A DNA stretch of 12,019 bases from a virus, in the IMG/VR virus record IMGVR_UViG_3300029955_000438; one strand, given 5' to 3'. The position numbers and the translations under genes are program-made. Below are positions 3,882 through 6,707 of this stretch, piece after piece (position 1 is the first letter of the stretch; each line of letters opens with the position of its first letter). The notes below the pieces were generated by a model, which saw nothing but the letters and a program-made list of their open reading frames with translations, was not told the origin of the DNA and ran no database searches.

Positions 3882-3918
3882 CAATTCGGGGTAGTCCATT
3901 CTCCTTCTACCCTGCCCG

Positions 3919-3953
3919 AACCGGGAGCCGTACAGGGCTCCCGGTTTATTTTG
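3919..3953 (+). terminator. Rho-independent terminator after rIIB
   Basis: Perfect 9-bp stem CCGGGAGCC (3921-3929), loop GTACAG, stem GGCTCCCGG (3936-3944), then TTTATTTT (3945-3952). An extra A:T pair flanks the stem. Confidence 0.8.
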
Positions 3954-3987
3954 AAAATTCTTCAAAGGATCGAATCAGGGGGATTCT

Positions 3988-4308
3988 ATGAGCGCGAGTA
4001 AGTGGGCACAGTGCCCACGATGCACAATAAACAACGAGAAGGAAGCTGATAAAAAGGACAGGGAGGCTCTCCTTTCCTACGGAAAAGTCACCCCAGAGCG
4101 GTACCTTGCTCAGCTTACGGAGGCCGCAAAGTACAGGGCTGACTTGCGCTCCGAAGACCAGTGTACGCTCCGGGAAGACTACACGCTGGGCACGCTTATC
4201 TACAAAGAATTCAATGGCCAGATAGCGTTTTACGTGCGATATTCCTCTCGCTGCGACCGATGCGGCTGGAAATTTACGTTTACGCACGATGAAGAGCTAA
4301 AATTGTAG
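3988..4308 (+). CDS. Small (106 aa) zinc-ribbon-like protein of unknown function
   Basis: SD AGGGGGA sits upstream of ATG 3988. There are two CxxC pairs, CPRC near the N-terminus and CDRC near the C-terminus. The gene sits between the rIIB terminator and the Ku promoter with no promoter of its own. Its stop TAG (4306-4308) overlaps the -35 of the next promoter. Confidence 0.6.
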   Translation: MSASKWAQCPRCTINNEKEADKKDREALLSYGKVTPERYLAQLTEAAKYRADLRSEDQCTLREDYTLGTLIYKEFNGQIAFYVRYSSRCDRCGWKFTFTHDEELKL

Positions 4309-4337
4309 ACAAATCTGGTACTTCCCCGGTATACTGT
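4306..4337 (+). promoter_or_regulatory. Conserved promoter, copy 2: -35 TAGACA (4306-4311), 18-nt spacer, -10 TATACT (4330-4335) within CCCCGGTATACTGT; drives the Ku gene
   Basis: Near-identical to the copy at 10042-10072 (TGTTAGACAAA…CCCGGTATACTGTAAA). It is followed by SD AAGGAGA (4344-4350) and ATG 4360. Confidence 0.65.
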
Positions 4338-4359
4338 AAACATAAGGAGAAACACCAAA

Positions 4360-5346
4360 ATGGCAAAGGCAAAGAACACATCGAAGACCGAAACCCCCGT
4401 CGCGGCTCCCGCGAAGCCTAGTGTCGCCGACCTCTCCAGCAAGTTGAACAACCTTCTCCACCCGAAGGTTGAGTTCGCCGATGTGAACGCCGCCGCCCCC
4501 GAGAAGGTTGGCTGTGGCCGTTCGACTTGGTCGGGTAAGCTGGTCGTCATCGAGGGCGCGAATGGCCTGACCGTCCCCGTCAAGACCTACAAGGTCATTG
4601 AGGACTCCGAGAAGTTCAAGACCAACATGATTCACCAGTGCAACCACGAAGCCTCTGAAGAGGCTCCCGTGTACGGACAGCTTAAGCAGGGTGCGATGAA
4701 GTGTGAGGCGTGCGAGGCGATTGTCGAGCGTGCCCAGTCCCTGAAGGGCATGAAGGATGACGACGGCAAGTTTTTCGTCATCACTGACGACGAGAAGAAG
4801 GGCTGCATGGTTCTGGCCGACAAGGTCATGACCGTTGAGAAGCTGGTTCCGGCGACGGAAGTTGACCCCCTGTACTTCGAAGCTGCCGAGTACCTCGGAG
4901 CCGATGGTGGTTCGATTGTCGAACGCGCCCTCGCCGTCTTCCGCGAGATGCTGGTGAGCACGGGTCAGGTGGCTGTTGCTCAGACCGCTCAGAGGGGGCG
5001 TGAACAGACTGTCATCATCCGCCCTTTGAAGGTTGGTCTGGCGGTTCACTTCGTGTACTTCGAACACGAAATCCGCATCTTCGACAAGGTTGCCCCGGTT
5101 GTCCTGAGCGAGGACGAGAAGACTCTGGCGAAGCAGCTTGGCGAGGCGATGTCTGACAAGTTCGTCTCCTCGGACTACAACGACAAGTTCTCGATTCGCT
5201 TCCGCAACCTGCTGACCGCCAAGAAGGCTGGCGTGGCCGCTCCTGAAGTCAAGAAGCAGGACGCCACCGCAGTGGTCACGGTTGACCTGATGGCCGCTTT
5301 GAAGGCTTCACTGGCCAACAAGAAGGCTGCAAAGGCTGGTAAGTAA
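4360..5346 (+). CDS. ku: Ku-like DNA end-binding protein (NHEJ Ku homologue) with an N-terminal K/A/P-rich extension and a basic C-terminal tail
   Basis: Matches to bacterial Ku: RSTWSGKLV…VPVKTY (compare Mku RAIWTGSIAFGLVNVPVKVY), CEACEAIV (compare CEACGEVV), FFVITDDE (compare MVAITDDD), EVDPLYFE (compare DVDPMMFD), HFVYFEHEIR (compare HTLLWPDEIR). The C-terminal VDLMAALKASLANKKAAKAGK resembles the lysine-rich Ku tail. About 50 extra residues (MAKAKNTSKTETPVAAPAKPS…) precede the core. Confidence 0.85.
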   Translation: MAKAKNTSKTETPVAAPAKPSVADLSSKLNNLLHPKVEFADVNAAAPEKVGCGRSTWSGKLVVIEGANGLTVPVKTYKVIEDSEKFKTNMIHQCNHEASEEAPVYGQLKQGAMKCEACEAIVERAQSLKGMKDDDGKFFVITDDEKKGCMVLADKVMTVEKLVPATEVDPLYFEAAEYLGADGGSIVERALAVFREMLVSTGQVAVAQTAQRGREQTVIIRPLKVGLAVHFVYFEHEIRIFDKVAPVVLSEDEKTLAKQLGEAMSDKFVSSDYNDKFSIRFRNLLTAKKAGVAAPEVKKQDATAVVTVDLMAALKASLANKKAAKAGK

Positions 5347-5353
5347 CGACATC

Positions 5354-5385
5354 GTGGGGGTAGGCTAGCACCCCGCCCCCACTTT
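5354..5385 (+). terminator. Possible weak terminator hairpin after ku
   Basis: GTGGGGG (5354-5360) pairs with CCCCCAC (5376-5382) across a 15-nt loop that contains the GCTAGC palindrome. It is followed by only TTT, so it is weak. Confidence 0.35.
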
Positions 5386-5471
5386 CAAGATTGAGCTGAC
5401 AAAACACGTGCGGTCTGGCCGATGTGCTGAATTCATCGTATCCTCGCCGCTGAATATTTTTCGGAGATGAC

Positions 5472-5717
5472 ATGGAAAAATTTAGCACGAGTGCCCCCAT
5501 TGAAGTACCATCTGAAGTGAAAGCTGCTCTGGATGCGTTCGTTGAGGACGACGGGCTGGAGTACGCCGACAACCAGCGGTATGGCTTGACCTCCGACTTG
5601 ACCTCCATGGCGTTGTTCGAGGAAGCCAGAAGCCGGGGGTGCTGTGGTAGCTTTGAAACCACAGTGACTGACCTGCAAGGCCGGGAGTGGATGGTCGGGT
5701 GCAACTACGGCCACTAA
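5472..5717 (+). CDS. Hypothetical 81-aa acidic protein with a C-terminal Cys cluster
   Basis: GGAGA SD sits 5 nt upstream of ATG. Codon usage fits the + strand genes. The protein ends …RSRGCCGSFETTVTDLQGREWMVGCNYGH. No family recognised. Confidence 0.45.
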   Translation: MEKFSTSAPIEVPSEVKAALDAFVEDDGLEYADNQRYGLTSDLTSMALFEEARSRGCCGSFETTVTDLQGREWMVGCNYGH

Positions 5718-5770
5718 AGCCAAACCTCGGTTGTCCGGGGATACTAAACCACGGAGGTAGAAAGGGTGGT

Positions 5771-6595
5771 ATGCTACACTTCATATTCCCGGCTGACCCG
5801 CTGAACCCGAAAAAGCTGGATGAGTATTTCGCCCCGCAGGCGTCCGCTCTGAAACGCTACCCCAACTCTGTGTACTCCACTGAGGCAGGTGGAATCTGGG
5901 GAGATTGCAGTAACAACCCGAGAGGGTTCGATGGTGCTGTGGTAGTGTATCGTGGCTGGATGCTAAACTCGGCTGAATACCGCGCTATGACAGACAAGGT
6001 GAAGACGATGGGTGGGCGGCTGTTTACTCGCCCGGAGGACTACATTCGCTGTCACCACCTGCCGTGCTGGTACCCGCTGATAGCGGGGCTGACTCCTGAT
6101 ACTGTAGTTTTTCCTGAGTTCTGTTTCACCCCGCAGTTCAACCTCGTGCTGGCTCTACAGGCATTGGGGTGGGAGCACTACTTTATCAAGGACTATGTGA
6201 AGTCCCTGAAGCTGGAGAACCATCCATCGGTGACGACACCGCAAGATGTCCTCACACTGCTTGATGCCATGACAAAATTCCGTGGCAAGTTGGAGGGCGG
6301 CATCTGTGTTCGCCGGGTGGAGAAACTGACCGACGAACGCCGCTTCTTCGTTATCCAAGGACGGACTATCGGGGTTTCGGGGGAGTGGGCAAAGGTGGAC
6401 ACCAACGGTATTTACGACCTGCTTGAGACTGTTCGTACCCGCGTGGCGTCTCCCTTCTACTCCGTGGACATCGCGATTCGCGACGACGGCCAGCCTCGGG
6501 TGGTAGAAATTGGAGACGGTCAAGTATCAGACTTGGTTGGTAACTGGACCCCGGAGGCGTTTGCCAACATTTGGGCCGGAGTGTACCATGATTAA
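5771..6595 (+). CDS. ATP-grasp superfamily enzyme (probable peptide/amino-acid ligase; R2K/RimK-like clade is a guess)
   Basis: The C-terminal half carries the ATP-grasp catalytic-core pattern …RRFFVIQGRTIGVSGEWAKVDTNG…FYSVDIAIRDDGQPRVVEIGDGQVSDLVGN… (E-x-G/N metal-binding loop). Start ATG 5771 follows GGAGGTAGAAAGGGTGG. The upstream in-frame extension to GTG 5687 has rare codons and AT-rich third positions, so I reject it. The stop overlaps the next ORF. Confidence 0.7.
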   Translation: MLHFIFPADPLNPKKLDEYFAPQASALKRYPNSVYSTEAGGIWGDCSNNPRGFDGAVVVYRGWMLNSAEYRAMTDKVKTMGGRLFTRPEDYIRCHHLPCWYPLIAGLTPDTVVFPEFCFTPQFNLVLALQALGWEHYFIKDYVKSLKLENHPSVTTPQDVLTLLDAMTKFRGKLEGGICVRRVEKLTDERRFFVIQGRTIGVSGEWAKVDTNGIYDLLETVRTRVASPFYSVDIAIRDDGQPRVVEIGDGQVSDLVGNWTPEAFANIWAGVYHD

Positions 6596-6707
6596 ATTTT
6601 GGGACAGGTTGCTCAAGTCGGAAGTCGATATAGTTCGTACCTTGATAAACCTCACCTTGATTCACGAGGTCGATTTTTACTTGGGAGACGATAGTGAAGA
6701 AGAATAA
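6588..6707 (+). CDS. Micro-ORF (39 aa, MIKFWDRLLKSEVDIVRTLINLTLIHEVDFYLGDDSEEE) bridging the ATP-grasp and Pth2 genes
   Basis: ATG 6588 lies within CCATGATTAA, overlapping the ATP-grasp stop at 6593-6595. Its stop at 6705-6707 overlaps the Pth2 GTG start at 6694. It may be a genuine coupling peptide or only an artefact of the overlap. Confidence 0.3.
   Translation: MIKFWDRLLKSEVDIVRTLINLTLIHEVDFYLGDDSEEE

Follow-up and report, generated by a model that had tools for sequence, protein, structure and literature searches.

What is the short motif that recurs ahead of several genes of an uncultivated phage? The motif lies in a 12,019-nucleotide (nt) stretch of viral DNA (IMG/VR record IMGVR_UViG_3300029955_000438; "the window" hereafter means this whole stretch), where it precedes rIIA, ku, and a gene for a protein of 241 amino acids (aa). 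An earlier note on this DNA (the original prediction) had proposed that it is a conserved phage promoter. Reading the window together with its flanks and its relatives, we conclude that the motif is probably the central part of a strong promoter of the sigma-70 family, which the phage carries in at least four copies.

Direct reading and a pattern search placed the motif at 196–227, 4306–4337 and 10042–10072, in all cases on the + strand, confirming the coordinates given in the original prediction. Each copy contains an exact CCCGGTATACTGT (215–227, 4325–4337 and 10060–10072, all on the + strand), and we found no further CCCGGTATACTGT match with two or fewer mismatches on either strand of the whole window. 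Dinucleotide shuffles of the window gave an expectation of 0.18 occurrences against the 3 observed, with only 1 of 200 shuffles reaching three. In a generic scan of the window for sigma-70-like sites, the three motif copies were the top three sites. The distance from the end of the motif to the ATG is 20 nt for rIIA (ATG at 248), 22 nt for ku (4360) and 18 nt for the 241-aa gene (10091). Hence, the proposed spacing of 20–25 nt upstream of a Shine-Dalgarno (SD) sequence plus ATG is roughly correct for the ATG but not for the SD, which begins just 4–8 nt past the motif in all three copies. Similarly, a longer context said to be common to copies 2 and 3 was recovered in part: both copies have TAGACAAA and CCCGGTATACTGTAAA, but TGTTAGACAAA is restricted to copy 3, with copy 2 reading TTGTAGACAAA at that place.

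We refer to the three copies as P1, P2 and P3; all coordinates that follow are on the + strand. P1, ahead of rIIA-rIIB (196–227), consists of a -35 hexamer, TAGCCA (196–201), an 18-bp spacer that ends in CCCGG (215–219), the -10 hexamer TATACT (220–225), and GT (226–227). P2, ahead of the ku operon (4306–4337), has the -35 hexamer TAGACA (4306–4311), again with an 18-bp spacer, CCCGG (4325–4329), and TATACT (4330–4335); the TAG of its -35 doubles as the stop codon of an open reading frame (ORF) of 106 aa. P3, ahead of the 241-aa gene and the genes downstream of it (10042–10072), has TAGACA (10042–10047), a 17-bp spacer, CCCGG (10060–10064), and TATACT (10065–10070). An A/T-rich, UP-like tract lies upstream of P1 at 174–195 and of P3 at 10027–10041 (TTTGAAAATTAATGT); relatives have gAAAAAAttt-type tracts at -60 to -38, and the function of these tracts would be assigned by analogy to UP elements (PMC2988021). 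Two repeats touch these tracts. CAATAGCCAAAAA is directly repeated at 168–180 and 193–205, at a distance of 25 nt; the stop codon of a UVR-domain gene (171–173) falls in the upstream copy, and the P1 -35 box in the downstream one. TTTGAAAATT occurs at 3950–3959, just past a terminator described below, and again at 10027–10036, ahead of P3.

Metagenome contigs in the JGI and ENA collections match the window; they are up to 36 kb long and include Ga0486840_000034 (36 kb) and Ga0311343_10003036 (28 kb). Joining their flanks gave 31.4 kb of the phage, 13.4% of it intergenic. A mismatch-tolerant scan of this DNA identified a fourth, variant copy, P4, outside the window: aaaTAGACAaacccccggtactCCCCGTATACTCT, at 18894–18925 of contig L015 (= 19913–19944 of L014), ~8.5 kb past the window end. 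P4 reads TAGACA-N18-TATACT, with CCCCG and CT instead of CCCGG and GT, and is placed in a divergent intergenic region ahead of a 261-aa ATP-dependent-DNA-ligase-like gene (phrog_114, E = 4.5e-6). An ATG exactly 7 nt past the P4 -10 opens a 20-codon ORF, and the ligase ATG is ~140 nt further. All four copies in the 31.4 kb fall between genes, each in the orientation of the gene that follows, and the chance of four out of four being intergenic is ~3e-4. There is no strain micro-diversity at the four promoter sites, all 10–18 contigs per site being identical there. A scan of IMG/VR for CCCGGTATACTGT-N3-8-GGAG returned just three hits, two of them the same sequence; these were unrelated by blastn and tblastx, and we take them to be chance matches.

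The four copies share the layout of a sigma-70-type promoter. The -10 is TATACT in every copy. The -35 hexamers, 17 or 18 bp from the -10, are identical to TTGACA at five of six positions (TAGACA) or four of six (TAGCCA), and they lack its second T, as a rule a well-conserved base. A/T-rich tracts are found upstream of all four copies, as in UP elements (~-60 to -38). CCC(G/C)G abuts the -10 in all four, and the remainder of the spacer varies. Conservation is bipartite: it covers one block from -36 to -29 and another from -17 to -5, and ends ahead of the start site. Folding of the promoters from -45 to +5 revealed no significant structure in any copy (z ~0 to +1), and there is no Rfam match anywhere in the window. 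The predicted RNA starts lie at ~232 for P1 (the first G of GGAGAG, with the rIIA ATG at 248), at ~4342 for P2 (with the SD AAGGAG at 4344–4349 and the ku ATG at 4360), and at ~10077 for P3 (the first G of GGAGGG, with the ATG at 10091).

To this single-phage picture we added relatives gathered with an rIIA alignment, comprising 2 IMG/VR and 61 metagenome loci. Apart from one fragment of the same phage, all relatives retrieved have rIIA proteins that are at most 56% identical, and none closer was found in the JGI collection; the closest Ku relative, P0002, from ENA ERZ1426850, is 87% identical. An rIIA-alignment scan of GTDB species genomes found no relatives and hence gave no clue to the host, and megablast of the whole window against the INPHARED phages gave no match. 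Four rIIA relatives (L035, L046, L053 and L069) are on contigs of 37, 436, ~144 and 340 kb, respectively. The presence of relatives on contigs of ~143, 340 and 436 kb indicates that the clade includes very large genomes, and it is probably made up of jumbo phages. The contigs of 340–436 kb include Ga0210388_10000011 and Ga0326728_10000058.

The same promoter build precedes rIIA in almost every relative, and likewise precedes ku, the ligase gene and the 241-aa gene where these are present. Orthologous rIIA promoters were found in ~30 relatives and orthologous ku promoters in 11; the P3 orthologue before the 241-aa homologue in L030 reads TAGCTA-N18-TAGATT-N6-GGAGAG. We aligned 45 unique orthologous promoters on the -10. 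The pattern TAnnnT was present in 45/45 and G-13 in 44/45, the spacer was 18 bp in nearly all, and the -35 hexamer took the family form T-R-S-M-C-R. Most of the 45 have either (A/G)GGAG or the ATG 6 nt past the -10, and in the nearest group most promoters have, between -60 and -38, a tract of the gAAAAAAttt type. Sites matching a generic promoter pattern numbered 1–7 per relative locus, as compared with 0.3–1.2 expected, with at least three in 7 of the 10 loci scanned; in most loci they were mainly on the coding strand, directly ahead of genes. The retention of one layout, with TAnnnT throughout, across such distant phages upholds the proposal of a sigma-70-architecture promoter, and its presence ahead of rIIA, ku, the ligase gene and the 241-aa gene in distant relatives upholds the proposal of a co-regulated gene set.

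In four relatives (L026, L027, L028 and L032), ku begins exactly at the seventh nucleotide past the -10, as does one gene of L086; the sites in question are L026 3885–3900, L027 5598–5613, L028 4274–4289, L032 4351–4366 and L086 9223–9238. Because these ATGs fall on the expected sigma-70-type start, they fix the -10 assignment and the expected start site without recourse to RNA. The arrangement implies that the ku mRNAs of these four relatives, and the mRNA of the L086 gene, would be leaderless. By the same spacing, most rIIA transcripts would open with (A/G)GGAG, placing the SD at the very 5' end.

We next consider the CCCGG next to the -10, which the original prediction had viewed as conserved beyond what sigma-70 requires and as a sign of an additional recognised element. 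In the nearest subclade (11 promoters, this phage excluded), C-17 is present in 1/11, C-16 in 10/11, C-15 in 7/11, G-14 in 9/11 and G-13 in 11/11. In this phage, C-15 and G-13 are found in all four copies and G-14 in three, the ligase copy having C. Other lineages have TGG (the canonical extended -10), nTG or nCG at this place; TGG-TATAAT is found in some relatives (group D, L026 and L031), and the L086 form is TAGCCAAA-N15-G-TATAYT, without CCGG. From these counts, the constrained part appears to be (C)CGG at -16 to -13 and, family-wide, only G-13. Positions -13 to -15 are read by sigma region 3 (PMC6719511, PMC3333887), in the zone of extended -10 and sigma-S promoters (PMC6719511; PMC2988021). 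Since the conserved (C)CGG sits in the zone of sigma region 3, a separate factor is not required, and we infer that CCGG is an extended -10-type contact. Hence, the constraint itself was recovered for (C)CGG and G-13, but it does not extend to C-17 and calls for no extra factor. We also observed a weakly conserved GG(T) patch in mid-spacer at -23/-22 (209–210, 4317–4318 and 10053–10054): all four copies of this phage have it, as do 8/11 promoters of the subclade.

Taken together, these features suggest how the promoters would work. The C-terminal domain of the RNA polymerase alpha subunit (alpha-CTD) likely contacts the A/T-rich UP-like tract at ~-60 to -38, and sigma region 4 likely contacts the -35 box TAG(A/C)CAAA. 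Sigma region 3 would read (C)CCGG at the -10-proximal end of the spacer (-17 to -13), with G-13 and G-14 as the constrained bases, and sigma region 2 would read the -10 hexamer TATACT. A 6-nt discriminator would then place the RNA start 7 nt past the -10, at ~232, ~4342 and ~10077, such that the mRNAs open at or within a few nucleotides of the SD, those from P1 and P3 with GGAG. The most likely polymerase is the host primary-sigma holoenzyme, presumably without phage proteins. If the host holoenzyme acts alone, the promoters would be pre-replicative ("early-type"), like T4 early promoters, which combine UP, -35, TGn and -10 elements with extra consensus positions (PMC2988021). The nature of the gene set (rII, Ku and ligase), together with this likeness to T4 early promoters, likewise suggests pre-replicative expression.

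The arrangement of terminators is in line with the promoter reading, strong intrinsic terminators marking the unit boundaries. The first, T1, follows rIIB (3918–3955, + strand) and consists of a 12-bp GC-rich stem (3918–3947) and then UUUAUUUU; it folds with -25.2 kcal/mol (z = -4.1), and 0/200 shuffles were as stable. The second, T2, follows a gene for a protein similar to the Major Vault Protein (MVP) at 9730–9760 (+ strand) and has a 10-bp stem and then UUUUUCU (-22.3 kcal/mol, z = -3.2). On this map, P1 would serve rIIA-rIIB, to T1; P2 would serve ku to the MVP-like gene, to T2; P3 would serve the 241-aa gene, a 195-aa gene, a 65-aa gene and onward; and P4 would serve the ligase gene. The gene calls made earlier for rIIA, rIIB, Ku, ATP-grasp R2K, PTH2 and MVP-like all hold; rIIA corresponds to phrog_612 (E = 1e-98) and ku matches Pfam Ku (E = 2e-20). 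The gene order rIIA-rIIB-ku-...-PTH2-MVP is kept in the nearest group.

The probable P2 transcription unit (4360–9712, + strand) contains ku, an 81-aa gene, the ATP-grasp R2K gene, a 39-aa ORF, the PTH2-like gene and the MVP-like gene. We found no convincing terminator between P2 and T2 (9730), the one hairpin there (5354–5382) having no U-tract and z = -1.75, and the R2K gene, the 39-aa ORF and the PTH2 gene overlap. Co-transcription from P2 is therefore the simplest reading, and the ATP-grasp, PTH2 and MVP-like genes are probably co-transcribed from the ku promoter. The original prediction had assigned these three genes to another temporal class because they lack the motif. Their place inside the P2 unit weakens that assignment; a different conserved motif upstream of the MVP-like gene means that this gene may have a second promoter. 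The motif in question, TTGCA(C/A)(C)TTCC-N7-8-AGTA(T)AGTA, lies 3' of PTH2 and 5' of the MVP-like gene in three phages (window 7164–7188; L029 6717–6738; L027 10941–10970), and may be a second promoter class or an MVP leader element.

Several other observations concern the genes of these units. The MVP-like protein (819 aa; window 7253–9712) has domains of the eukaryotic Major Vault Protein type (MVP_shoulder, E = 3.5e-26; Vault_3, E = 1e-9), and its gene is kept in the phage clade, always near ku and PTH2 (window; L086 12799–15414; L027 11556 onward). Two paralogous R2K-type ATP-grasp genes lie within 13 kb (window 5771–6595; L020 2781–3626), and the PTH2-like gene follows the window copy. 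T1 and T2 are 280–360 nt upstream of the next promoter, with an ORF in between in each case: the 106-aa ORF (3988–4308), which has CxxC...CxxC motifs, and a hydrophobic 78-aa ORF (9770–10006). Neither ORF has a homologue in any relative, and both have the look of ORFan insertions that lack their own promoter.

Several features weigh against recognition of these promoters by an ordinary primary sigma. The -35 is never TTGACA: its position 2 is a purine (A or G) in 42/45 promoters and is T in 3/45, which is unusual in strong promoters that a canonical primary sigma is to read. Just before the -10, CGG/CCG stands in place of the canonical TGn. The -35/-10 variant is uniform within each lineage (TAGMCA/TATACT here, TGGACR/TATAMT or TACCYG/TAGWWT in others), and lineage-uniform boxes are also expected from co-evolution with a phage-encoded factor. 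In addition, the genome is probably far larger than the ~31 kb that we scanned. Such features would be explained by a phage-encoded or phage-modified specificity factor, either a phage sigma-70-family protein or a "sigma appropriation" pair like MotA/AsiA, that reads TAG(A/C)CAAA and/or CCGG and makes these promoters a middle-type class. Each lineage would then have its own box on the same orthologous genes, the fixed 18-bp spacing and invariant G-13 would reflect the factor, and the relatives on 143–436 kb contigs have ample room for its genes; moreover, in T4 the middle promoters of rIIA and rIIB depend on MotA (PMC2988021, Table 1). However, every box variant fits TnnnCA at the normal -35 place, that of group B being TGGACA (5/6), and UP-like tracts with a full TAnnnT are what an unaided primary-sigma holoenzyme uses. 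We found no MotA-box-like TGCTT at -30, no transcription-factor Pfam or PHROG match near the promoter sites, and no sigma-like ORF in 856 kb of loci, the last by a weak, low-sensitivity tblastn with E. coli RpoD as the query. We consider a phage specificity factor unlikely on this balance. The broader idea is rather doubtful: that the class is read not by a TTGACA-preferring primary sigma but by a clade-encoded sigma-70-family or sigma-remodelling factor that co-evolves with the promoters, or through an altered specificity of an uncharacterised host phylum. It draws on the avoidance of T at -35 position 2 (3/45), the A-tailed box (TAGCCAAA/TAGACAAA), the fixed 18-bp spacer, the invariant G-13, and the lineage-uniform variants. 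Two other types of promoter were rejected. A sigma-32-like -10 (of the CCCCAT type) does not fit relatives that have no C-run and keep TAnnnT. A T7-like single-subunit RNA polymerase promoter, with one contiguous conserved block of ~20 bp across the start site, or an N4 hairpin promoter does not fit the bipartite conservation and the lack of a hairpin.

Other explanations address the near-identity of the copies rather than the polymerase that reads them. Besides acting as promoters, the copies could serve as homology patches for modular gene shuffling, in the manner of the promoter-early/stem-loop cassettes (PeSLs) of T4-like phages. PeSLs join a strong sigma-70-like promoter to an AT-rich region and a stem-loop with G/C tracts, and they mediate the insertion and deletion of ORFans (PMC2839356, PMC4122927). 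A role of this kind would explain identical stretches of 30–45 nt within one genome. Consistent with such a role, the rIIB terminator directly precedes the ku promoter in relatives, and here the 106-aa and 78-aa ORFs, for which relatives have no homologue, separate terminator from promoter; furthermore, TTTGAAAATT occurs both past T1 and ahead of P3. Conversely, we saw no recombinant junctions or indel polymorphism in the 10–18 identical contigs per site, this phage has no stem-loop in or beside its promoters, and just four copies are known. We therefore put this additional role forward only tentatively. If the CCGGTATAC region were an operator that overlaps the -10 and is bound by a repressor or another DNA-binding regulator, its sequence identity would stem from protein binding and not from polymerase contacts. 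GTATAC is a 6-bp palindrome, CGGTATACTG is palindromic at 8/10 positions, and a second, GGT-containing patch lies 10–12 bp upstream in 4/4 copies, with GG at -23/-22 in 8/11 subclade promoters. On the other hand, the palindrome is not extended (the -10 requires T at -7, and relatives vary at -6/-5), the conserved positions are known polymerase contact zones, and no candidate regulator gene was found nearby, such that we regard an operator as very unlikely. Chance similarity, or a repeat without function, has the small number of copies in its favour; given the shuffle statistics, the intergenic placement, and a layout kept in relatives at no more than 56% rIIA identity, we regard it as excluded.

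Overall, the motif is a well-supported and essentially ordinary phage promoter family, and it reveals no new mechanism. For a clade of large phages that are uncultivated and have no close INPHARED match, it provides a usable promoter model (UP-like tract, T-R-S-M-C-R, 18 bp, G-TAnnnT, 6 nt, start) and an operon map (rIIA-rIIB / ku to MVP / 241-aa block / ligase). Placement of the Ku and ligase genes under one promoter class suggests a co-expressed module for DNA-end joining or end protection. The predicted transcript starts, which lie at or near the SD and in relatives can coincide with the ATG, offer a hint on the translation-initiation habits of the hosts. The main residual oddity is the combination of a non-TTGACA -35, fixed 18-bp spacing and an invariant G-13 across the clade; if it is true that the non-TTGACA -35 needs a phage factor, the family would be a new example of promoter specificity set by a phage.

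The promoter family described here resembles several known systems in part. Like extended -10 promoters and the determinants of sigma regions 3.0/3.1 (sigma-70 E458; sigma-S K173 with C-13), its conserved -16 to -13 element abuts the -10. Like sigma-S promoters, it has TATACT, the hexamer preferred by sigma-S, and like extended -10 promoters it has G-14 in three of four copies. By contrast with the extended -10, C replaces T-15, in all four copies of this phage, so the TGn form is absent from it; the invariant G-13 differs from the C-13 of sigma-S promoters and from the n of TGn, and the contact here is a predicted one. We ruled out a sigma-S promoter because position -13 is G and not C in 4/4 copies and in 44/45 promoters of the family. 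The likeness to the PeSLs of T4-like phages lies in a sigma-70-like promoter that recurs with an AT-rich region ahead of it and is linked to G/C-tract terminator hairpins and ORFans, and extends, in several relatives only, to a terminator that abuts the ku promoter. In this phage, unlike in PeSLs, the hairpins are 280–360 nt upstream, beyond an ORF, and there is no stem-loop inside the promoter.

T4 itself offers two further parallels. As in T4 middle promoters, which T4 has before rIIA and rIIB, a host-type -10 is combined with an upstream box other than TTGACA. However, the box here is at the normal -35 place (17/18 bp from the -10) rather than centred at -30, and its sequence has no relation to (a/t)(a/t)(a/t)TGCTT(t/c)a; nor did we see a homologue of MotA or AsiA. 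A MotA-box middle promoter was ruled out on both position and sequence, -36 to -26 reading TAG(A/C)CAAAnn without TGCTT. Compared with T4 early promoters, the "uber" UP/-35/TGn/-10 class that the unmodified host sigma-70 holoenzyme uses (PMC2988021), the phage -35 is TAG(A/C)CA (family T-R-S-M-C-R) and not TTGACA-like or GTTTAC-like, the spacer is 18 bp, (C)CGG with G-14/G-13 takes the place of TGn, and transcripts would start at or near the SD, with the ATG itself as the start in several relatives. The two groups nonetheless share a UP-like tract, a -35, an element abutting a near-consensus -10, and extra consensus positions beyond those of the host, and in both, near-identical copies in one genome stand before pre-replicative functions such as rII.

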